Source of the DNA: Escherichia virus TH43
DNA: 64,000 nucleotides
Sequence record: MT446414.1
Strand: one strand, 5' to 3'
Part shown: one piece after another, positions 1,772-58,806 of the stretch
How positions within the stretch are numbered: position 1 is the first letter of the stretch
Layout: every line of letters begins with the position of its first letter
Translations under genes and position numbers: made by a program
The notes under the pieces: generated by a model
Told to the model about the DNA's origin: nothing
Databases searched by the model: none
What the model saw: only the letters and a program-made list of their open reading frames with translations

Positions 1772-2047
1772 ATGAGTAAAGTAATTAAGTTTTACAGTAA
1801 TTCATGTGCTCCGTGTGCAGCTATGGCTCCTGTGTTTAAGAAGGTTGTGGCTGACTACAGTGTAGAAGTTGAAGAAGTAAATATCTCTGAAGGTGATGGT
1901 CGAGAGCGAGCCATTGAATACGGTGTTCGCAGTATCCCAGCCTTTGTCGTCCCTGATAAGAATAGTGGTGCTCATTATAGTTTATCAGGTATGCAAACTG
2001 AATCTAATCTCCGTGCATTTTTAGACACGGCTCTGAAAGGTATTTAA
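1772..2047 (+). CDS. thioredoxin-fold redox protein (CxxC)
   Basis: N-terminal KFYSNSCAPCAAMAPVF motif; RBS AAGGAA. Confidence 0.6.
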   Translation: MSKVIKFYSNSCAPCAAMAPVFKKVVADYSVEVEEVNISEGDGRERAIEYGVRSIPAFVVPDKNSGAHYSLSGMQTESNLRAFLDTALKGI

Positions 2048-2048
2048 T

Positions 2049-2264
2049 ATGGAAAAGAAACCTTGGATTACTTTTTGGGTAGTTAAGTGGTTTAATTTTG
2101 ATAGCACAATCCCTAGTTTCTCCTCATATACAACACGGAGAGAGGCTCGCCGCTTTAAGCGAGCTTTAAAAATTGCTAACACTGGCGCTTCTAAGATTAC
2201 AATTCAGAAAGGGATTGAAACAGAAAGTGGAAGCAACATGATTTATAAAAAGATTCATTATTAA
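2049..2264 (+). CDS. hypothetical protein
   Basis: ORF track. Confidence 0.4.
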   Translation: MEKKPWITFWVVKWFNFDSTIPSFSSYTTRREARRFKRALKIANTGASKITIQKGIETESGSNMIYKKIHY

Positions 2265-2278
2265 GGAAGAGTTCAAGG

Positions 2279-2929
2279 ATGAATGAACAATTACAAGCAA
2301 CACTAATCGAAGCAATGGGTTCTGATAAATCTGTTGTTAATGCAGCTCGAGTTTCCTTTGGGGTTACTCGTGAAGGAGAGTTAAATGAACGAGATGAACG
2401 CCTTATCAAATTCCTTGCCAGAGAAAAGCATGTCACACCATTCCGTCATCCGACAATTAGCTTCCGATGCAAAGCGCCAATCGCAATTGCGAGACAGTTG
2501 GGCAAGCATCAAGTTGGATTCTCGTGGAACGAAATGTCCCGGCGGTATAAAGATGGAGCAGTTGAACTCTTCATCCCTAAAGAGATTTTTGAAAGACCTT
2601 CGGACCTCCATGCAGGTGCAGGGAATCTCCTCACCACAGGAGCACAAAACTCTGCACTAGTTCTGATTAATCGAGCATATGAAACAGCTCTTGAGTCGTA
2701 CGATGAATTGATTAAGTTCATTGCTCCAGAACAAGCTCGATTCGTATTACCTCAGGGTATGATCACTGAGTGGGTATGGACTGGTTCTCTATATGGTTGG
2801 TCAGAGTTGTGTCGTCAGAGATTGTCAGACCATGCTCAGTACGAAGTACGAGTGTTCGCATCAACAATTGATGAAGAGCTTCGTAAAATATACCCAATCT
2901 CTTGGGATGCATTACGTGAAGCCCACTAA
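2279..2929 (+). CDS. thyX: flavin-dependent thymidylate synthase ThyX-like protein
   Basis: AARVSF...TPFRH...FRCKAPIAIARQ...SWNEMSRRY resembles the ThyX core; canonical RHR appears as KHQ. Confidence 0.6.
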   Translation: MNEQLQATLIEAMGSDKSVVNAARVSFGVTREGELNERDERLIKFLAREKHVTPFRHPTISFRCKAPIAIARQLGKHQVGFSWNEMSRRYKDGAVELFIPKEIFERPSDLHAGAGNLLTTGAQNSALVLINRAYETALESYDELIKFIAPEQARFVLPQGMITEWVWTGSLYGWSELCRQRLSDHAQYEVRVFASTIDEELRKIYPISWDALREAH

Positions 2930-3101
2930 AGCATGTAGCTTCTGTCGAAAGCAGAAGCTTCTTATCAATTTCAAACTGAATGAGGAAACAGGTTTGGGTC
3001 ATGCTTTTTGTCATGATTGCAGGCACTACCTCGAACAGAAGCAATACATAAACTGGTTGCATTACTACAACCCTAACATCTATAATCACAAGGTTATCTA
3101 A
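2906..3101 (+). CDS. small zinc-ribbon protein (CxxC...CxxC); overlaps thyX 3' end; start uncertain
   Basis: ORF track 2793..3101; Cys pairs CSFC and CHDC. Confidence 0.35.
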
Positions 3102-3581
3102 ATGAAAGCTATTTTTGAAGGAAGGGAGTATGATGTTCCTGATTGGGTTAAATACATAGCCCGTGACTATGATAATCTGGTTTGGGCATATGGAGACGTA
3201 AGACCTGTGTTTAATGAAAACACTGGTAGTTGGTCTAACATGTCAAAATTGCCAGGATTTATTCGGGCACTTGGCTCTTCTAGTCGTCCTGTAGGTTTCG
3301 CTGCTGACTCACTTGTTGAGGTTGGTGTTGAAAAGGAAATAGACAAGCCAGAAACGATTTGGGTTTTATCTTCGAGTACCCCAATCAAAGGGAGTCGTGG
3401 GATTTCCTTCTATGTTGAACCGGTCGCTTACTTCAAAAATAAGCCAACCATCAACGCTCTGATGTTAAAGAACATTCCTTATTCACAAGTTGCTACTCTG
3501 TTAGATAATGGTACAGTGCTTGTTGAGAATAATGGGACAAATCAAATCTTTTATGATTTAGAAGAAAGGGTTTTGGAATGA
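3102..3581 (+). CDS. hypothetical protein
   Basis: ORF track. Confidence 0.5.
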   Translation: MKAIFEGREYDVPDWVKYIARDYDNLVWAYGDVRPVFNENTGSWSNMSKLPGFIRALGSSSRPVGFAADSLVEVGVEKEIDKPETIWVLSSSTPIKGSRGISFYVEPVAYFKNKPTINALMLKNIPYSQVATLLDNGTVLVENNGTNQIFYDLEERVLE

Positions 3582-3787
3582 GAATCTACAAATTAAGTCT
3601 ATGCTTTAGTGAATGGACTCACGACACAGAAGTAAAAGCAACTTATTACAAAGACCGTCCTACTCGTGGTCAGCTGATGCTAGATGGTATGGGTAGTGAT
3701 GCTTGTGATGTTGTTCTTCAATACGGAGCTGTTCAGGACTCTTCTCCCGGATATGTTTGGAAACTTGGGATTATTGAGGTTAAGTAA
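3578..3787 (+). CDS. hypothetical protein
   Basis: ORF track; ATGA overlap with previous gene. Confidence 0.45.
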   Translation: MRIYKLSLCFSEWTHDTEVKATYYKDRPTRGQLMLDGMGSDACDVVLQYGAVQDSSPGYVWKLGIIEVK

Positions 3788-47819: not shown

Positions 47820-48395
47820 CCCTACCTGCTATCAGTGGCATGCCTACCCATAAATACCCTACCCATTAATATAAGCCATCTATTTAATACCCATGTATAT
47901 CTAACCAGTGATTTCCTACCCGTATTTCTCTTACTCATATTGAGAAGGGATGAAAGGCTAGACTCTGATGCACTGTTAAGGGGTTATAATAAGAGGGCTA
48001 ATAGTAAGGGCTATTATAGTAAGGTTAGTGATGGTAACACCATGCAATTATATCAATCCTCACACTACCCCACGTTTAATAGTAATAACCTATGTTAATG
48101 TTTCATGAGTGGATTATTGATGTATGTATCATTAGACTGGAAGTAATAACTTTCTTTTATTATTCTCTTTTAATCTTTTCTTTTTCAGCGTGCTGTTGGT
48201 CTTTTTCTTTTGTTGTTTGAGTAAATTATTTGACTGGTAATTAACTCCCGCATGGTCTGGTCTGTCATCTGTAACTAACTTACATTATACCCTACCCGTT
48301 TCCCCTTCCTCGTTAGGCTTCTTACCCATTGGCTAACCTATGCGGCACGTTCTACCCATCTGTCGTTGCCGTTGGTCTGCTACCCGTTCTATAAG
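47820..48395. repeat. dispersed YTACCC(A/G)T repeats plus TAAG(A/G)GGCTA direct repeats in ORF-free region
   Basis: about 8 CTACCC(A/G)T copies; AATAAGAGGGCTAATAGTAAGGGCTATTATAGTAAGG at 47981-48020. Confidence 0.5.
48100..48240. other. AT-rich segment (candidate DNA-unwinding element)
   Basis: long AT-rich stretch between repeat clusters. Confidence 0.3.
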
Positions 48396-48504
48396 TGTTA
48401 TAAAGTAACATTCTGTTAGTAAGCTGTACCTCTGAGTAAGAAAGTTTAGTAAATTAAATTCCTTTTAGATTCAATGAGTTATGAAATAGTTTGAAAATAA
48501 GTGG

Positions 48505-48532
48505 TTGACATGTTTTTCCTTTAATATATAGT
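48505..48532 (+). promoter_or_regulatory. sigma70-type promoter (TTGACA-16-TATAGT)
   Basis: consensus -35 and near-consensus -10; ~40 nt upstream of gene at 48571. Confidence 0.6.
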
Positions 48533-48570
48533 TGCGACTGTAGTTCACATCAACCGAAAGGATTAATGAA

Positions 48571-49434
48571 ATGTCAAAGTTAGCAATTAAATACTTGAAT
48601 CAGGCAAATGATGTACTTTCTCTGTTAGGTCTTTCCGTTGGTGTGCCTTCTCAATGGATGGATAACCAGCAAGCTCGTACCAGCTTTAAAAACTCTGTCA
48701 TTCTGGCTTGTCTTATCATAGATTCCGCTGCGAACGCCTTACAGTGTGAAGATGAGCAGTCAATGAAAGAGAATGGTTTTACAGATATGCAAGATGCTAT
48801 CAACTGTTACATTCAGGCTAATTTAGATAGTTGGACTCAGAATGATTGGCCTGAATCTTGCCGCGATGTTAACGCAGTATTATCCCGCTTGTCTGCTATG
48901 GTTGAAGCTGTTCAGAACAAGAAGAAGAAAGATAGCAAGCCTTCTATTGCAAGTAAGATTATGAAGTCTGTCAACCTTGCAAGTTATGCACTGGTTGCAG
49001 CTATCGGTGTCAGTGCTATCGCTCCCAATGTGCAGGCAAAAGACTCTCTTTCTACTGGTCTGCAATCCTTTGTTAGCACGTTTAAGAATGCTCCTGATAT
49101 GGCTTGCCGTGACGTTGGCAGTGATGGTAATGATTCATTCTGGAAGGTGCATTTTAACTCTGTAACCGTAAAAGATGTGCGTGTCACTCTTACCCCGTTA
49201 GGTGAGAAATCAGGCATTCAGTCGGTTATTAATTTAAAGCGTGCTGACAGTGATCATGATATGGTTACTTATTCTCTATATCAGAAGATTGAGAAAGAGA
49301 AATTACAGTTTGTAACTAATCTCGTTAGTTATGGTGATGTGAGTGAAACTGTACTCGCTACCACTGCTTACAATGACGGTGTAGCAGTTTATACAACCTT
49401 TATTAACTTTGCTAATTGCGAGGCTATCCAGTGA
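48571..49434 (+). CDS. hypothetical membrane protein (one TM helix)
   Basis: RBS AAAGGA; TM segment LASYALVAAIGVSAIAP. Confidence 0.5.
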   Translation: MSKLAIKYLNQANDVLSLLGLSVGVPSQWMDNQQARTSFKNSVILACLIIDSAANALQCEDEQSMKENGFTDMQDAINCYIQANLDSWTQNDWPESCRDVNAVLSRLSAMVEAVQNKKKKDSKPSIASKIMKSVNLASYALVAAIGVSAIAPNVQAKDSLSTGLQSFVSTFKNAPDMACRDVGSDGNDSFWKVHFNSVTVKDVRVTLTPLGEKSGIQSVINLKRADSDHDMVTYSLYQKIEKEKLQFVTNLVSYGDVSETVLATTAYNDGVAVYTTFINFANCEAIQ

Positions 49435-49679
49435 ACGAATCATTTGCAACCGTAATAAACTCTCATATGTGCATTCAGCATGGTGATTTGGTTATCAGCG
49501 GTAAATATGGGCTTGTACTGATCCCTATCCGTGCGCTAGTGTCTTTATCTTCATTGCGTGCACGCATGACCATCGCTCAGTTGTCCGGCCTTGATCCGAT
49601 GGATGCTAACGAATATCGTGATTTGCTGGTTAAATCTGGTCTATCGCTGGAAGAATTACTAACCATTGAGGATAATTAA
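49431..49679 (+). CDS. hypothetical protein (GTG start; track ORF begins 49416)
   Basis: ORF track. Confidence 0.4.
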   Translation: MNESFATVINSHMCIQHGDLVISGKYGLVLIPIRALVSLSSLRARMTIAQLSGLDPMDANEYRDLLVKSGLSLEELLTIEDN

Positions 49680-49681
49680 CG

Positions 49682-49954
49682 ATGGAAACTATTGCCATTA
49701 TTGAAACACATAATTACGGCGTAGGCATTACACTGAATTATGATGCTATGGCTGACGTTGGTAATTTGTTATTGATCACCCCTAGCGATATGAAAATTAT
49801 TGCCTTCACTGGTATTATGCTTATTGGTGCGGATTATCTTGAGCTAGCCCAATTCTTTGCCCGTAATGGCCTACTATTGGACGTTGACGAGGTGCAAGCC
49901 ATTTGTGAAACCTTTGATAACTATCTAGATAAGGTAGTAAGTGGTGAGCAATGA
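49682..49954 (+). CDS. small acidic protein
   Basis: ORF track. Confidence 0.45.
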   Translation: METIAIIETHNYGVGITLNYDAMADVGNLLLITPSDMKIIAFTGIMLIGADYLELAQFFARNGLLLDVDEVQAICETFDNYLDKVVSGEQ

Positions 49955-50053
49955 TTCATAAATATTTCTTGCATTGCCTGATTGCTTTCTGTATCATGTT
50001 ATTTACCTATGACATGATTTCTTATGTTGCACGTTCCTTGTAAGGGTTGGATT

Positions 50054-50380
50054 ATGAAAATTAAATTAGCTGTATGTGCTGCCTTGTTCGCTGTTTCTTC
50101 CGTGTCACATGCTGCCGTATTCAATGAGGCTAGCCTTGATGGTCTGCAATGCACCTATCTAATGGAAAATTACGACACTGGCAAAAAGTCTAGCAAGGTA
50201 GTATTGATTGACCTGAATGATTATGATCATCGTGTCGTTGATGGCAAGCATGCAATGCTAGTCAATGAAACTACAGGCAAGCAAATTACTATTGATCACA
50301 TGATGCGGTCTAGCATGACGTTGTTCGATGAGTCGATGAACGAAATAGCATCAGGTAACGGCACTTGCACCAATCCGTAA
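50054..50380 (+). CDS. secreted protein (signal peptide)
   Basis: MKIKLAVCAALFAVSSVSHA signal peptide; RBS AAGGG. Confidence 0.5.
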   Translation: MKIKLAVCAALFAVSSVSHAAVFNEASLDGLQCTYLMENYDTGKKSSKVVLIDLNDYDHRVVDGKHAMLVNETTGKQITIDHMMRSSMTLFDESMNEIASGNGTCTNP

Positions 50381-50400
50381 CCAACCCGTAAGACTCTCTA

Positions 50401-50426
50401 AGCGCCCTTTTGAGGCGCTTTTTTCA
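50401..50426 (+). terminator. rho-independent terminator
   Basis: AGCGCC...GGCGCT hairpin plus TTTTTT. Confidence 0.55.
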
Positions 50427-50586
50427 TTTCTAAGGTGATTGCACATCTTGCCCCTGTTTATCTCGTTAGAACGCCTCCTACATGCCTAGCTTTTGATTAT
50501 AATGCTTGTTTTCTTCCTCCCTTGATGTTATTCGTGCGCGTGCTCATCTATACCTAAAAGAAAGTGAAATTATTTTAGAAAAAGGT

Positions 50587-50615
50587 ATTGCTTTCTTTGC
50601 TTGATAGATTTATAT
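50587..50615 (+). promoter_or_regulatory. sigma70-like promoter (TTGCTT-17-TATATT), weaker
   Basis: sequence match only. Confidence 0.3.
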
Positions 50616-50675
50616 TTGAATCTCAGGTTTAGTTATGCAGTCGGTAGCAAGCCTGATAGGCTAGACTTTTAGCCT

Positions 50676-50688
50676 TGCTCTTTAAAAA
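50676..50688 (+). promoter_or_regulatory. boxA-like antitermination element (TGCTCTTTAAAAA)
   Basis: matches rrn/lambda boxA consensus; preceded by short hairpin. Confidence 0.5.
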
Positions 50689-50742
50689 CTCGATTAGTGT
50701 ATCTTGATAAACTCCCAACCATGCCATAATGAGGATTTATCA

Positions 50743-50943
50743 ATGAACATCTATACCTTCTCAAGCAAAGACACACAAATCACTTGCACTAGCATTAACG
50801 TTACTAACATGATTATGAGAATAGTCGGTAGTACATTACAGCAAGCGAAAGAAATGGTAGCCGATGCCGATAAAGGTAAAGCTATCGCGGTCTTATCGCT
50901 GGTAAGTACAGATAAAGATTTAACCTTTAAACGTATGAACTAG
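50743..50943 (+). CDS. small hypothetical protein
   Basis: ORF track 50704..50943; ATG 50743 after RBS TGAGGA. Confidence 0.45.
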   Translation: MNIYTFSSKDTQITCTSINVTNMIMRIVGSTLQQAKEMVADADKGKAIAVLSLVSTDKDLTFKRMN

Positions 50944-51010
50944 GGTAAGGTAAGGTTAGCGGCCTTAATGGTCGCTAGTTTATCAAGATGCATTAATCGA
51001 AAAATAGTTG

Positions 51011-51038
51011 TTGACACGTCGAATCGTTATGATAAGAT
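51011..51038 (+). promoter_or_regulatory. sigma70 promoter (TTGACA-16-TAAGAT)
   Basis: consensus -35; -10 TAAGAT. Confidence 0.55.
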
Positions 51039-51084
51039 GTGCACATGGTCAGCGATGACATAAAACATCCGGCACTAAGTGCCC

Positions 51085-51097
51085 CGCTCTTTAATAA
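51085..51097 (+). promoter_or_regulatory. boxA-like antitermination element (CGCTCTTTAATAA)
   Basis: preceded by hairpin GGCACTAAGTGCC; followed by TTTATC as in rrn leaders. Confidence 0.55.
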
Positions 51098-51172
51098 TTT
51101 ATCGTCTTGCCCTTTCGCAAAGATTCACGCGAGATAAGGGAAGAGAACAAAAAGAAGACGATAAAAAAAGAG

Positions 51173-51200
51173 TTGACAAGGTGAAACGTTCTGATAGAAT
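51173..51200 (+). promoter_or_regulatory. sigma70 promoter (TTGACA-16-TAGAAT) with A-rich UP-like element
   Basis: consensus -35, strong -10, A-tract upstream. Confidence 0.65.
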
Positions 51201-51223
51201 GTTCACTAAGCAGTAAGAAACAC

Positions 51224-51236
51224 CGCTCTTTAAAAA
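51224..51236 (+). promoter_or_regulatory. boxA-like antitermination element (CGCTCTTTAAAAA)
   Basis: ~25 nt downstream of promoter at 51173. Confidence 0.5.
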
Positions 51237-51340
51237 TATGAATCAGAAAGTTAAGCGCAACCGCTTACAATCTTGTTAATCCAATACGTGATTAACTGGT
51301 CATTCGAAAGAATAGACGAGAAAAAGATTTAAAAAAGTGG

Positions 51341-51369
51341 TTGACACGCTAAACAGGATGATTCATAAT
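51341..51369 (+). promoter_or_regulatory. sigma70 promoter (TTGACA-17-CATAAT) with A-rich UP-like element
   Basis: consensus -35, good -10, A-tract upstream. Confidence 0.65.
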
Positions 51370-51458
51370 GAGCACTCACTAAGCAAATCACCGCGAAGTG
51401 AACAGCGTAACAACGGCTAACAGTTGCATAGTGTGAGAAAGCACACTGATAGATTTAC

Positions 51459-51472
51459 CGCTCTTTAACAAT
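51459..51472 (+). promoter_or_regulatory. boxA-like antitermination element (CGCTCTTTAACAATTTA)
   Basis: near-identical to E. coli rrn leader boxA; preceded by hairpin GTGTGAGAAAGCACAC. Confidence 0.6.
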
Positions 51473-52285
51473 TTAAACATTCTCCTATATCGGTTGAATA
51501 TGCTAGATGATAATAACCATCGGATAGCATACCAGATAAAACGGTGTAAGATTCTCTAAGTTATCAGAGTAAACAATCTCACAATCCCTTACTGGAAACG
51601 TCACCACTGATAAGCAGATTCATCGAGTGCACGCAAAGACTTAAGCTAATCGCCCACGGTTAAGGGTAGCGGCGGTCATCGCTAACAAGGCGCTACGGTG
51701 AAAGAAGTTAATCAGGGTAGACAAGCCCGACTAATTAACGCTCAATTGAGAGCGGCGGGGAGTGGTTAAAAAGTGGCAAATTGCTATTTAACAATAAGGT
51801 TTAGTGTGAACGTTTACGAAGTGAATGATTTGAGGCCACTATTGATGGCGTACATAATCAGTTTATGTAGTAAACCTGCTGAAAGATATAAAACGTCAAT
51901 GTATCAGGCGGCTAATGACTCTTTCGCAATAACCTCCCGTAGTGGGCGATGGTTAGCGATTGAGAGTTGGTATAAAAGGATAGGCGGGAGCGAAAGCAAA
52001 GTAAACGATATTACCGACGGTTACAATAAAGTAACTAATTAGAGTCGGGCACACTGCCTTATTGTGATGATTGATCATCGCTATCAGGTCGGCTTCGTTT
52101 ATAGCGACTAATTAAAGATACCAGATGAAACATCACGGATAATGGGGCGGCTAGGTTAACTCCTGATAAGACCGCCCCACTTACCTATAACTACTTAATA
52201 ACGAGCGGTTATAGTTAAGTCATTGTGACTTGAATAGCTCATAGAGAGCGGCGCATAGAGCGTTTCAATTAAAAGGTAAATTATC

Positions 52286-53188
52286 ATGGCTAAATCTTTC
52301 AATCTGGTTAACGAATCTGGCTTTAACGCACTGGCTAACAACATTCGTAGCAACAACGCAGCGATTAAGCAAGATGTTTCTAACTTCCTGTTAGGTCACT
52401 TACAGCACTTCCGTGCTAACGGTAAGAAGTTAGATGTATTGCAGGCGGCAGTAGACTTCCTGTTAACCGAGCGTTACCGTGATTTAGATGTGATTGCGGT
52501 TGCAATCTCTTTCCTCACTCCTATCAAGTACAACAGCGACGGGGCGAACGGTAAAAAGAAATGGATTAATCTGGAAGGTGAAGCGAAAGCGAAAGAAGAC
52601 GCTAAGCCGGAACAAGTTAAGGCCAAAATGGAACAAAACCGTGCCCGCTGGTCTAACTCCTTTGAACGCTTTGCGAAAGGTGAAGACGTGCAGGTTGATA
52701 ATCCAGCTTTCTATAAAGGTTGCAATGACAACGTGCCAGTTGCCAACCAAATCAACCAGAAAGTTGGCGAAAACTTCAGCCAGGATATTTACGCCTTAAC
52801 TGATCGTTTGGCTGCAATCCGTATTGAAGCGGCCTTACTGGCTGATGAGCGCAACGGTGCATCTTCTGATAACACTATCGCATTGAGTGAAGAGGTAGGC
52901 AAAGTTAAGAAAACTTTTGATTCACTCCTTAAGAAAGTAACCGCATCAACTGTATCTATCAGCGATGACTATCTGATCAATGCCTCAGCCAAAGAGCTTG
53001 AATCTCTGGATTCATACGCTGATGAAATGGAGAAAGCGATCAACGAAATGACTGAAAAATTGTCTAACCTTCGCGGTCGTATCTCAAATGCTTCAACTGT
53101 CAAAGCGAACGAGAAGGCGGCGGCAGATGAGGAAGAAGTATTGCGCAAAGCTGCCGCAATCATGGCAGCACGCCAACAAGCTGCATAA
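52286..53188 (+). CDS. hypothetical protein (300 aa), first gene downstream of the tandem early promoters
   Basis: ORF track; terminator downstream. Confidence 0.55.
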   Translation: MAKSFNLVNESGFNALANNIRSNNAAIKQDVSNFLLGHLQHFRANGKKLDVLQAAVDFLLTERYRDLDVIAVAISFLTPIKYNSDGANGKKKWINLEGEAKAKEDAKPEQVKAKMEQNRARWSNSFERFAKGEDVQVDNPAFYKGCNDNVPVANQINQKVGENFSQDIYALTDRLAAIRIEAALLADERNGASSDNTIALSEEVGKVKKTFDSLLKKVTASTVSISDDYLINASAKELESLDSYADEMEKAINEMTEKLSNLRGRISNASTVKANEKAAADEEEVLRKAAAIMAARQQAA

Positions 53189-53208
53189 CTTACAATAAAG
53201 AACATATA

Positions 53209-53242
53209 AGGCGCTATTCGAAAGGGTAGCGCCTTTTCTTTT
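53209..53242 (+). terminator. rho-independent terminator
   Basis: GGCGCTA-TTCGAAAGGG-TAGCGCC hairpin plus T-tract. Confidence 0.6.
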
Positions 53243-53296
53243 ACTAGTGCATTGATTCAGTGTACTAATCAAAGAAGCTAAAAAGAGATAAACACC

Positions 53297-53521
53297 ATGC
53301 CAAAATTGAAAACAGAAGTTAAGATGTATCGTAATATCTTAAACAACATGACCTATCGTAAAACCGATAAGTATGGAATCGAGTGTAAATGCATCCTTAC
53401 CGGTGAATGGTATCCGTCACCGATTCAAGAACAAGCATTGATTGAAAACTCTGTTACTTACACCATCACGCAGGAAACTAAGCTAGGCCGATTCCTTCGT
53501 AAGTTAGGGCTACGCAAATGA
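53297..53521 (+). CDS. hypothetical protein
   Basis: ORF track. Confidence 0.45.
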   Translation: MPKLKTEVKMYRNILNNMTYRKTDKYGIECKCILTGEWYPSPIQEQALIENSVTYTITQETKLGRFLRKLGLRK

Positions 53522-53739
53522 TCTTAACTCAATCCCACCTTTGCCCTATCTGTAAGAAAGCGCGTGCTAATAACAACCATCGCAAGTGTAGTAGAATCTT
53601 ACAACGACGTCGTAATGATGCCGAGATGGATAAGCTGCACAAAAATCAGCATGAGCACGAAAGAAAACAAGCGGCGATTAGTGCATCTTCTGTAATGTAT
53701 CGTCGTGTAAGATCACTCCAATATAGGGAGGTTATTTAA
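53518..53739 (+). CDS. small basic protein with CxxC
   Basis: ORF track. Confidence 0.45.
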   Translation: MILTQSHLCPICKKARANNNHRKCSRILQRRRNDAEMDKLHKNQHEHERKQAAISASSVMYRRVRSLQYREVI

Positions 53740-53948
53740 TGACCAGCTTAAGCACGTTAGAGAAGAAAGCTACTCGTTTGTTAGGGCGTCGTGTCCGCTA
53801 TCACTACCTGAATAAAGGCAAGGCATTAACCGGACGTATTACCACGGTATCCAGTTGTCGCGGTAAACTGATCTCTGTAAGTGTTCTCTTTGATGGCGAA
53901 CGGGTAGCAATTACGCGTAGCTGGAAGTCGTTTAGTTTGATTGATTAA
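53739..53948 (+). CDS. hypothetical protein
   Basis: ORF track. Confidence 0.45.
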   Translation: MTSLSTLEKKATRLLGRRVRYHYLNKGKALTGRITTVSSCRGKLISVSVLFDGERVAITRSWKSFSLID

Positions 53949-54018
53949 GTTATTTGGTTAAGCCTTGCTATGTGGTAAGGCTTGCACGATATAATTTATC
54001 AGCGAAAGGAATAAAGCA

Positions 54019-54494: not shown

Positions 54495-54547
54495 GACGCT
54501 CTTCTTGAGCGTCTTTGTGTCTGCCGCCTTTGTGCGGCTTTTTGCGT
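54495..54547 (+). terminator. two tandem rho-independent terminator hairpins
   Basis: GACGCTC...GAGCGTC then GCCGC...GCGGC, each followed by T-tract. Confidence 0.5.
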
Positions 54548-54703
54548 AGCTAGTGATGCCTAAAGGGAAAGCCCTTTGTGAATCATTGGCATGGTTCAAT
54601 CCCTATTGGATGGTCATTTGACCGGGCCTTTAACGAGGCCGCTTTTTTAAGAGTCTTTACGAGGATTCTTAAATGAGTGAGGTCATGTTCACTCTTTCAG
54701 GTC

Positions 54704-54730
54704 GCCCCGTCTTCGGATGGGGCTTTTTTA
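54704..54730 (+). terminator. rho-independent terminator
   Basis: GCCCCGTC-TTCG-GATGGGGC hairpin plus TTTTTT. Confidence 0.6.
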
Positions 54731-58317: not shown

Positions 58318-58740
58318 TTGAAGATAGAGTTAGAATACCCCTTCGTTAATGACTGGCGATTGGGCTACTTAAGAACAAGCAGAGACGGTAGGAAGCGTGT
58401 TGATTTGTATAATACCGACACGGAGAGGACAACCATTTCTTACGCAAGATATTTAATGTCTTGTCACATAGGCAGGTACCTAACTGAAGACGAGGAGGTT
58501 GATCATATTGACAGAAATAAAACTAATGATGACATATCTAATCTTCAGATACTTTCCATAGAAAATCACAGAAAGAAGTCAACATTAGAAGCAACTACTG
58601 GAAGAACAATGATTTCAGTTGTTTGCTCTTATTGTGGAAGATCTTTTGAAAAAGAAAAGCGAAATGTTAAATATGCAAATTCTTTTTGTAACAGATCATG
58701 TGCAGGTAAGTATAACGGTTTCAAATCTATCGGGGCGTAG
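58318..58740 (+). CDS. HNH homing-endonuclease-like protein
   Basis: EEVDHIDRNKTNDDISNLQILSIENHRKK HNH motif. Confidence 0.55.
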   Translation: MKIELEYPFVNDWRLGYLRTSRDGRKRVDLYNTDTERTTISYARYLMSCHIGRYLTEDEEVDHIDRNKTNDDISNLQILSIENHRKKSTLEATTGRTMISVVCSYCGRSFEKEKRNVKYANSFCNRSCAGKYNGFKSIGA

Positions 58741-58806
58741 TCTAGTGGAACAGGCAGCGAGCTTCTAACTCGCCTTACGAGGGTTCGAATCCTTCCGTCC
58801 CGACCA
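58731..58806 (+). tRNA. tRNA-Arg (anticodon TCT)
   Basis: hand-folded 76 nt cloverleaf: 7 bp acceptor, D-loop with GG, anticodon loop CTTCTAA, T-loop TTCGAAT, encoded CCA. Confidence 0.8.

Follow-up and report, generated by a model that had tools for sequence, protein, structure and literature searches.

The 64,000-nucleotide stretch of DNA analysed here (the window; Escherichia virus TH43, MT446414.1) carries a spacer of 1.87 kb that runs from an intrinsic terminator-like hairpin at 50400-50420 to position 52285 and contains a single open reading frame (ORF) of 66 amino acids (50743-50943). Directly behind it, at 52286, the ORF list places the first substantial gene, as the original prediction had stated. 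A megablast search of the GenBank phages with positions 50400-52300 returned 97 records, all of them phiEco32-type (Gordonclarkvirinae) coliphages or Shigella phages, with Bas88 (95.5%) and vB_EcoP_SU7 (92.3%) being the closest, and judging by its sequence the window is a phiEco32-like coliphage, given in the direction of early transcription. The orthologous spacer of phiEco32, SU10, KBNP1711 and Bas93, located between phi32_125 and phi32_124 (SU10 genes 121 and 120), has a length of about 1.9-2.0 kb and no annotated genes. In the window it combines predicted promoters, boxA elements of the type found in ribosomal RNA (rRNA, rrn) operons and a structured RNA of about 0.9 kb. The promoters and boxA elements are, from upstream to downstream:

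50658 to 50687, plus strand: module 0, hairpin AGGCTAG-ACTT-TTAGCCT (50658-50675) followed by boxA0 GCTCTTTAAAA (50677-50687)
51011 to 51038, plus strand: predicted promoter P1, TTGACA-16-TAAGAT, 10 of 12 consensus positions, TG-extended, predicted start at about 51045
51071 to 51096, plus strand: module 1, hairpin GGCAC-TAA-GTGCC (51071-51083) followed by boxA1 GCTCTTTAATA (51086-51096), at about +41 from the predicted P1 start
51098 to 51165, plus strand: long hairpin between boxA1 and P2, with an 11-bp perfect outer stem TTTATCGTCTT/AAGACGATAAA and 93% mean pairwise identity
51173 to 51200, plus strand: predicted promoter P2, TTGACA-16-TAGAAT, 11 of 12, TG-extended, A-tract AAAAAAAGAG upstream, predicted start at about 51206
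51225 to 51235, plus strand: boxA2 GCTCTTTAAAA, at about +19 from the predicted P2 start
51341 to 51369, plus strand: predicted promoter P3, TTGACA-17-CATAAT, 11 of 12, A-tract AAAAAAGTGG upstream, predicted start at about 51375
51429 to 51448, plus strand: boxB-like hairpin TAGTGTG-AGAAAG-CACACTG, 11 nucleotides 5´ of boxA3 (helix H4, three of seven pairs compensatory)
51460 to 51470, plus strand: boxA3 GCTCTTTAACA, at about +85 from the predicted P3 start

Three near-consensus sigma70 promoters at 51011, 51173 and 51341, all pointing rightward, about 160 bp apart and with A-rich UP-like tracts at the last two, had been proposed in the original prediction. Our consensus scan returned exactly these sites, with distances of 162 bp (P1 to P2) and 168 bp (P2 to P3) on the plus strand and with both tracts in place. 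The two tracts fit AAAAAARNR, the pattern of the proximal UP subsite. A weaker candidate at 50587 did not hold up, since the site (TTGCTT-17-TATATT, 50588-50616, plus strand) matches at 3/6 and 5/6 positions (8/12), falls below the scan threshold and is not distinguishable from chance. On both strands of the whole window only 19 sites reach at least 10/12, five of which have a perfect TTGACA, and four of these five lie on the plus strand at 48505, 51011, 51173 and 51341. With uniform placement, the chance of finding three sites on one strand within 360 bp is about 0.02, and the surrounding 18 kb are depleted of promoter-like sites (24 versus 40.5 ± 7.9 expected from shuffles).

Conservation was followed in 14 related loci, and the window was aligned with 13 relatives by MAFFT. 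P3 is found in all 14 phages, with TTGAC(A/G), CATAAT, the 17-nucleotide spacing and the tract AAAAAAG(T/C)G(G/A) kept while the sequence of its spacer drifts. At P2 the -35 hexamer is conserved and the -10 hexamer reads TAGAAT in the Suseptimavirus group and a weaker TGnTAAGCT in several Kuravirus genomes. The phiEco32/SU10 cluster shares the P3 hexamers and 80-95% DNA identity with the window, whereas the upstream modules vary between genera. For the SU10 spacer three sigma70 promoters have been published, which "should be recognized" (PMC4281155), and the early genes of phiEco32 are transcribed by the sigma70 holoenzyme and later switched off by gp79 (PMC12276001; for sigma70 use at the level of the family see also PMC4281155). 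The promoter array is already published for the phiEco32/SU10 family and adds nothing alone.

Downstream of each promoter a motif recurs, CCGCTCTTTAA(A/C/T)AAT. The consensus for functional boxA elements in gamma-proteobacteria is GYTCTTTAANA (PMC5725501), and the window contains six matches to it, with 0.66 expected. Four of them (50677, 51086, 51225 and 51460) lie within 794 bp on the plus strand, each downstream of a promoter, and the stricter form GCTCTTTAA has four copies in the 64 kb, at exactly these positions. The other two matches, at 3463 (minus strand) and 44310 (plus strand), were counted as chance since they are antisense to long ORFs. The leader of E. coli K-12 rrnB reads GCGGCACTGCTCTTTAACAATTTATCAGACAATCTGTGTGGG; boxA3 is identical to it over 16 of 16 consecutive bases (GCTCTTTAACAATTTA), including bases 3´ of the core, and boxA1 agrees in 17 of 18 bases over GCTCTTTAAnAATTTATC. 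The loop region UGAGAAAGC of the hairpin at 51429-51448 resembles the rrnB boxB (UGAGAAAAAGC). Hairpins are located directly 5´ of boxA0, boxA1 and boxA3, which is the rrn order (boxB, boxA) and not the lambda order, and none is present 5´ of boxA2 (51225-51235).

The 14 related loci contain 58 boxA consensus matches, four to five per genome, and all 58 are on the plus strand inside the spacer, where they alternate with strong promoters; in the approximately 75 kb of these loci no match was found on the other strand or outside the spacer. The 11-nucleotide core is invariant in 58/58 copies, and the flanks and the promoter spacers vary. The long hairpin at 51098-51165 is likewise present in all 14 genomes compared (folding z of -4.0 for 51045-51172), and lies between boxA1 and P2, so that RNA started at P1 would include one more structured element.

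Could CGCTCTTTAAnAAT be a DNA site instead of an RNA signal, at which a protein of the host or the phage controls the adjacent promoters? The motif is AT-rich and recurs near promoters, and in several Kuravirus genomes the next -35 hexamer follows it after about 47 bp. Its distance to the next promoter ranges from 47 to 334 bp, however, and it occurs in strictly one orientation, matches an RNA consensus exactly and has 16/16 bases in common with the rrn leader, also beyond the core on the 3´ side. In addition, the T7 element follows the last promoter, with none downstream. A role as DNA site is thus very unlikely. Relative to the searchable literature the boxA behind each promoter looks new: the phiEco32-family papers searched, among which the two primary ones (Savalia 2008, Pavlova 2012) were not included, report neither boxA nor a structured RNA, and the BASEL phage paper does not mention antitermination or noncoding RNA.

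The upstream part of the spacer (50421-51095) is variable and rich in insertions and deletions, with a mean pairwise identity of 67%, and the alignment is nearly free of gaps from about 51100 onwards. The 0.9 kb behind P3 are the best-conserved part of the locus. The leader (51376-52285) has a mean pairwise identity of 89.8%, compared with 83.6% for the 300-amino-acid gene behind it. Variable columns are spread evenly over the three codon phases in the leader (292 of 916 columns; 103/93/96), whereas the gene shows a phase bias (375 of 903 columns; 85/54/236). ARAGORN detected no tRNA or tmRNA between 48 and 54 kb. Being more conserved than the gene, without phase preference and without a shared reading frame, the leader is constrained as noncoding sequence.

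The coding alternative, in which the leader encodes unannotated small proteins, was rejected. A frame of 90 amino acids is open in the window (51773-52042) and one GenBank record annotates ten tiny ORFs in the spacer, but the 90-amino-acid frame is interrupted in the majority of relatives, no ORF of at least 40 amino acids is common in position and frame to the 14 genomes, and 3-nucleotide periodicity is absent from the leader as a whole as well as from this frame (23/27/28). We therefore regard small proteins as extremely improbable. The record mentioned is that of vB_EcoP-101114UKE3, in which ten hypothetical ORFs of 30-49 amino acids on both strands fill the spacer (1947-3617). These ORFs, almost certainly spurious, overlap promoters, boxA sites and the structured RNA. 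The annotation of this region needs mending, as the present records are either blank or contain spurious tiny ORFs in the spacer.

Homologues of the leader were collected by scanning IMG/VR and metagenomes for an invariant 19-mer, after which 22 distinct full-length homologues were available. In IMG/VR the 19-mer was found in Gordonclarkvirinae genomes only. Of 12 metagenome loci, six were full length and entered the alignment, three were truncated and set aside, and three turned out to be chance matches and were removed after alignment. A scan with a 16-mer gave 11 additional loci, all of which were rejected by nhmmer. The consensus structure of the 22 homologues (RNAalifold) has 249 pairs. 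Hardly any of them are broken, and 43 have changed on both sides. If partners are slid by one to three columns, the fraction of paired cells falls from 99.4% to 35-47% and the number of compensatory pairs from 43 to 1-8. Shuffled alignments give 23.2 ± 2.5 compensatory pairs (0 of 500 shuffles reach 43) and 63 compensatory cells, compared with 208 in the real one. Support is best for the helices H4 (the boxB-like hairpin), H12/13, H14/15, H31, H37 and H39.

Several observations identify the strand. A helix scan detected nested helices with compensatory changes on the plus strand, seven of them with at least two compensatory pairs, compared with two such helices on the minus strand. G-U pairs make up 10.3% of the paired cells, and from phage to phage 59 pairs switch between the Watson-Crick and the G-U form; such switching is neutral only on the plus strand and would create A-C mismatches on the opposite one, and thus agrees only with the plus strand as the RNA. 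The window copy folds essentially into the consensus architecture at -272.6 kcal/mol (minimum free energy z of -6.55), and the fold of the opposite strand is 24 kcal/mol weaker. Taken together, 51376-52285 specifies an RNA of about 0.9 kb that is both conserved and highly structured and is organised as follows:

51472 to 51770, plus strand: domain I, closed by 51472-51485/51757-51770, with H8, H10-13, H14-19 (a long irregular stem) and H20
51771 to 52065, plus strand: hairpin H21, then domain II, closed by 51791-51809/52050-52065
51911 to 51971, plus strand: H31, a 21-bp hairpin in domain II with seven covarying pairs
52066 to 52264, plus strand: 3´ hairpin series H34, H35, H36, H37, H39, H40, H41 and H42
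52144 to 52178, plus strand: H37, in which five of seven pairs covary

A 28-nucleotide block (51776-51803) is invariant in all homologues and is modelled as partly paired with the equally invariant 52056-52065. The same block contains a boxA look-alike, GCTATTTAACAA, in which C4 is changed to A; this is the change that has been used to inactivate the suhB boxA (PMC5725501). A 14-nucleotide motif, ATACCAGATRAAAC, occurs twice inside the RNA (51529-51542 and 52118-52131; 0.04 expected), is highly conserved at both places and might be bound by a protein or take part in a tertiary contact. Between the RNA and the 300-amino-acid gene there is no terminator, H42 having no U-run. A long-range helix between the boxA3 flank and the Shine-Dalgarno sequence of this gene (helix 5) showed no covariation, is partly broken in the window copy and was not relied on.

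The RNA is present in all 97 GenBank relatives and confined to phiEco32-like coliphages within the collections searched. Rfam 15 gave no match for 48000-54000 at E-values up to 1, and for the whole window at the gathering threshold only the tRNA gene at 58731. A BLASTN comparison with 5,426 E. coli genomes found no match to the leader, so the RNA does not come from the host. The last 10 kb of Salmonella phage 7-11 contain no boxA consensus, no homologue of the leader (nhmmer) and no comparably strong promoter, and the module is thus restricted to the E. coli subfamily; the authors of the Salmonella phage 7-11 study postulate an undefined antitermination strategy. The structured RNA of the leader also looks new to the searchable literature.

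The original prediction described a T7-like promoter array embedded in an ORF-poor leader. The scarcity of ORFs was borne out, with a single 66-amino-acid ORF in 1.87 kb, but the spacer is not passive, having a boxA for each promoter and a conserved structured RNA. A non-functional spacer, in which the repeated CGCTCTTTAA is a passenger of tandem module duplication, would agree with the promoters, which are real, and with modules that look duplicated and vary in number and make-up among genomes. It would not account for an 11-nucleotide motif that stays invariant in 58/58 copies while flanks and promoter spacers diverge and that exactly fits an independently defined host RNA signal (PMC5725501), nor for a stretch behind P3 that exceeds coding DNA in conservation and covaries as RNA. 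We consider this explanation highly improbable.

Our preferred interpretation is an early unit built like an rRNA operon, in which Nus factors loaded at boxA would carry the polymerase through the structured RNA to the early genes; we give this reading a probability of roughly 60%. On entry of the phage DNA, host sigma70 RNA polymerase would initiate at the tandem promoters P1, P2 and P3, a step for which sequence and conservation speak and for which promoter activity is published in the family. The nascent RNA would then display an rrn-type boxA approximately 20-85 nucleotides past each predicted start, preceded by a hairpin in rrn order in module 0 and in the modules of P1 and P3. In host transcripts boxA serves to load NusB-NusE, and along with it NusA, NusG and SuhB, onto the elongating polymerase (PMC7665894, PMC5725501), and boxA guards the long untranslated transcripts of CRISPR arrays from Rho (PMC7665894). 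The boxA sequences are plain to see in the phage spacer, and from them we infer that NusB-NusE (S10) would likewise bind here and, together with NusA, NusG and SuhB, produce a fast, Rho-resistant polymerase as for E. coli rRNA; a phage N-like protein would not be needed. The modified polymerase would next cross the untranslated RNA, 0.9 kb of it when starting from P3 and 1.25 kb when starting from P1, which is the type of transcript that Rho would otherwise shorten. The RNA and its structure are well defined by the alignment, and their transcription would presumably depend on boxA. Finally, transcription would enter the 300-amino-acid gene and then, beyond the terminator at 53208, the remaining early genes. 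The Nus complex may in addition speed up elongation and help the RNA to fold, as has been described for rRNA.

Several points weigh against this interpretation. Transcription, Nus binding and antitermination are all deduced from DNA sequence. No boxC-like GU-rich element (UGUGUGGG-like) was found 3´ of any of the four boxA copies; rrn antitermination reportedly works without boxC. Between 46 and 64 kb intrinsic terminator-like hairpins are enriched (31 versus 13.2 ± 3.5 expected). Complexes of the rrn type have been described as acting at Rho-dependent, not intrinsic, terminators, and boxA therefore cannot explain read-through of the intrinsic ones. The leader is G-rich (GC skew of +0.16 to +0.30 over 51600-52100) and structured, and thus in itself a poor substrate for Rho. 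One group found Nus factors to be dispensable against Rho termination at rRNA loci (PMC5725501), so that the benefit of boxA might lie in folding or speed rather than in protection from Rho. A single boxA past the last promoter would suffice, as in rrn and T7, and one per promoter may simply reflect module duplication. Lastly, boxA or the leader RNA may partly be in print already (Savalia 2008, Pavlova 2012).

The copy number of boxA could also be read as a decoy: three to five strong promoters would produce boxA RNA that soaks up NusB-NusE (SuhB, S4) and leaves the rrn operons of the host short of the complex that serves them in antitermination and as chaperone, a form of host shut-off with only secondary effects in cis. 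That the strongest promoters of the genome are followed by several consensus boxA copies agrees with this, and boxA RNA expressed from a plasmid reportedly titrates NusB (Friedman et al. 1990). The spacer has no terminators between the modules that would release short boxA RNAs, however, but only a weak hairpin at 51252-51267, and the conserved 0.9-kb structure would be left unexplained. A single boxA is enough for T7 and rrn. We regard the decoy as unlikely; it would be compatible with an early unit of the rRNA-operon style and does not exclude it.

As for the RNA itself, our working guess is that it stabilises or regulates early expression, either as a folded 5´ leader of the 300-amino-acid gene and the early operon or as a processed RNA. 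Combined with the boxA copies it might also serve as a sink for Nus factors. A further-reaching suggestion is that the approximately 0.8-0.9-kb RNA (51472-52264) represents a new family of large trans-acting phage noncoding RNAs, which the phage would produce as soon as infection begins, by means of an rRNA-type system taken over from the host (tandem strong promoters, boxA and Nus factors), and which would act on the host instead of being a mere 5´ untranslated region (UTR). The RNA has the size of the large bacterial noncoding RNAs in Rfam, invariant blocks of 27-28 nucleotides and a multi-domain fold. Its targets in the host would be, for example, the takeover of transcription or translation, or the countering of defence systems. 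We put this forward tentatively and hold it to be rather doubtful.

A long RNA that is conserved in structure as well as in primary sequence and lies directly downstream of the strongest promoters might also serve as a replication primer, similar to RNA II of ColE1, its folding directing a persistent RNA-DNA hybrid and thus creating a transcription-activated origin. The G-rich transcript (51600-52100) would suit such a hybrid, and we know of no mapped origin in these phages, which we counted in favour of this possibility. On the other hand, G-richness is usual for structured RNAs, and the phage is annotated with its own replication proteins (PMC4281155), of which primase and helicase were not looked at. 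An AT-rich unwinding block or iterons were not noticed, though no systematic search for them was made. Overall, a primer function appears improbable to us.

Comparison with known systems supports the likeness to rRNA operons and also shows its limits. Like the phage spacer, the E. coli rrn leader has tandem strong promoters with A-rich upstream tracts and a hairpin followed by boxA about 20-85 nucleotides past the start (in rrnB, boxA lies at about +32 from P2). The 16/16 bases of boxA3, the similar loop of the preceding hairpin and the long structured untranslated RNA behind boxA complete the resemblance. The phage differs in having no boxC, in carrying one boxA per promoter where rrn has one per operon, in an RNA that is dissimilar to E. 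coli sequences and Rfam families, and in the protein-coding operon that follows.

The T7 likeness that the original prediction saw in A1/A2/A3 is justified, as both are tandem early promoters directed towards the early genes of a virulent phage, and it goes further than proposed. The three strong T7 sigma70 promoters are 124-128 bp apart, close to one genome end and pointing inward, and past A3 T7 has a single perfect boxA, CGCTCTTTAACAA (813-823), 63 nucleotides behind the A3 start and ahead of gene 0.3. This element is unannotated in NC_001604, and a documented T7 boxA was not found in the literature searched. In contrast to the phage studied here, T7 has a leader of only about 175 nucleotides between position 750, where A3 transcription starts, and gene 0.3 (925), no 0.9-kb structured RNA and no homology to our leader profile (nhmmer). 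T7 later switches to its own RNA polymerase, whereas the phiEco32-type phages use the phage sigma factor gp36 together with gp79 (PMC12276001).

CRISPR arrays and the suhB 5´ UTR also have a promoter-proximal boxA consensus before a long untranslated RNA, with a proposed anti-Rho purpose (PMC7665894, PMC5725501). They are, however, chromosomal host loci with a single boxA, which in suhB represses translation, while the virulent phage has several copies. In lambda, the early transcripts recruit host Nus factors via the boxA of nutL and nutR, as the transcript of this phage probably would. The boxA of lambda is of a weaker type, CGCUCUUA, is followed by boxB and requires N. Here, by contrast, the full rrn-type consensus stands in rrn order.

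The spacer is embedded in the following features:

48505 to 48532, plus strand: first early promoter (predicted by the consensus scan), TTGACA-16-TATAGT, 11 of 12, heading a small operon (48571-50380)
50400 to 50420, plus strand: intrinsic terminator-like hairpin with T-run, closing this operon at the beginning of the spacer; an annotated terminator in SU7 and SU10
50743 to 50943, plus strand: ORF of 66 amino acids with GAGGA 8 nucleotides upstream; SU7_114 in SU7, present in only a minority of relatives
52286 to 53188, plus strand: first long gene, 300 amino acids, orthologue of phi32_124, PHROG 13018, a function-unknown family
53208 to 53235, plus strand: strong intrinsic terminator-like hairpin with a 12-bp stem and T-run, 3´ of the 300-amino-acid gene; an annotated terminator in SU7

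The promoter at 48505 is kept in SU7, UKE3 and Bas89, and the SU10 paper mentions "one promoter upstream of CDS125" (PMC4281155). The 66-amino-acid ORF is flanked by a 33-nucleotide inverted repeat (50690-50722 and 50968-51000, 85% complementary), and only about 12 of the 97 relatives have the segment between the repeats, which is gapped in the rest. The arrangement suggests that the segment was inserted as a cassette, or that a long-range stem encloses the ORF. More generally, the spacer upstream of P2 is mosaic among relatives, with four to five promoter-boxA modules per genome. EK010 combines upstream modules of the Kuravirus type with a P2 of the Suseptimavirus type, and in KBNP1711, MN05 and SGF2 module 2 is interrupted by about 200 bp of inserted sequence. 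The repeated promoter-boxA modules may act as recombination substrates.

The hairpin at 53208-53235 is a possible end of the transcription unit. On the plus strand between 53208 and 56952 the early operon is heavily punctuated by terminator-like hairpins, four of them within 54495-54723 and strong ones at 53208, 56517 and 56927. Searches of Pfam, PHROGs and PDB sequences gave no functional label for ten neighbouring proteins, and single-sequence AlphaFold2 modelling of the 300-amino-acid protein was unusable (pLDDT 45.5). Several GenBank records and PHROG 13168 name the last gene of the upstream operon (50024-50380) "terminase"; it encodes only 118 amino acids and opens, from the ATG at 50055, with the signal-peptide-like MKIKLAVCAALFAVSSVSHA, and the label looks wrong. 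In the early/middle region a tRNA gene is located at 58731-58803 on the plus strand (Rfam RF00005, 52.9 bits), and the SU7 paper states a tRNA-Arg for the SU7 genome.

The main interest of the locus is not the promoter array but the leader RNA and the proposed N-independent use of boxA by lytic phages. If confirmed, a virulent phage family uses the N-independent antitermination signal of host rRNA at every early promoter. Since T7 carries the same element, N-free hijacking of Nus factors may be general in the early transcription of lytic coliphages. If this is true, host nus alleles and Rho activity would be linked to the host range of therapy phages such as SU7, ES17 and others. In addition, a well-studied phage group contains an unannotated RNA, with 249 predicted pairs and a structure supported by covariation, which surpasses its neighbouring genes in conservation. 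Large structured RNAs without assigned function are rare, and this one comes with a tractable E. coli system, as the BASEL phages Bas86-Bas93 grow on K-12 with O-antigen.

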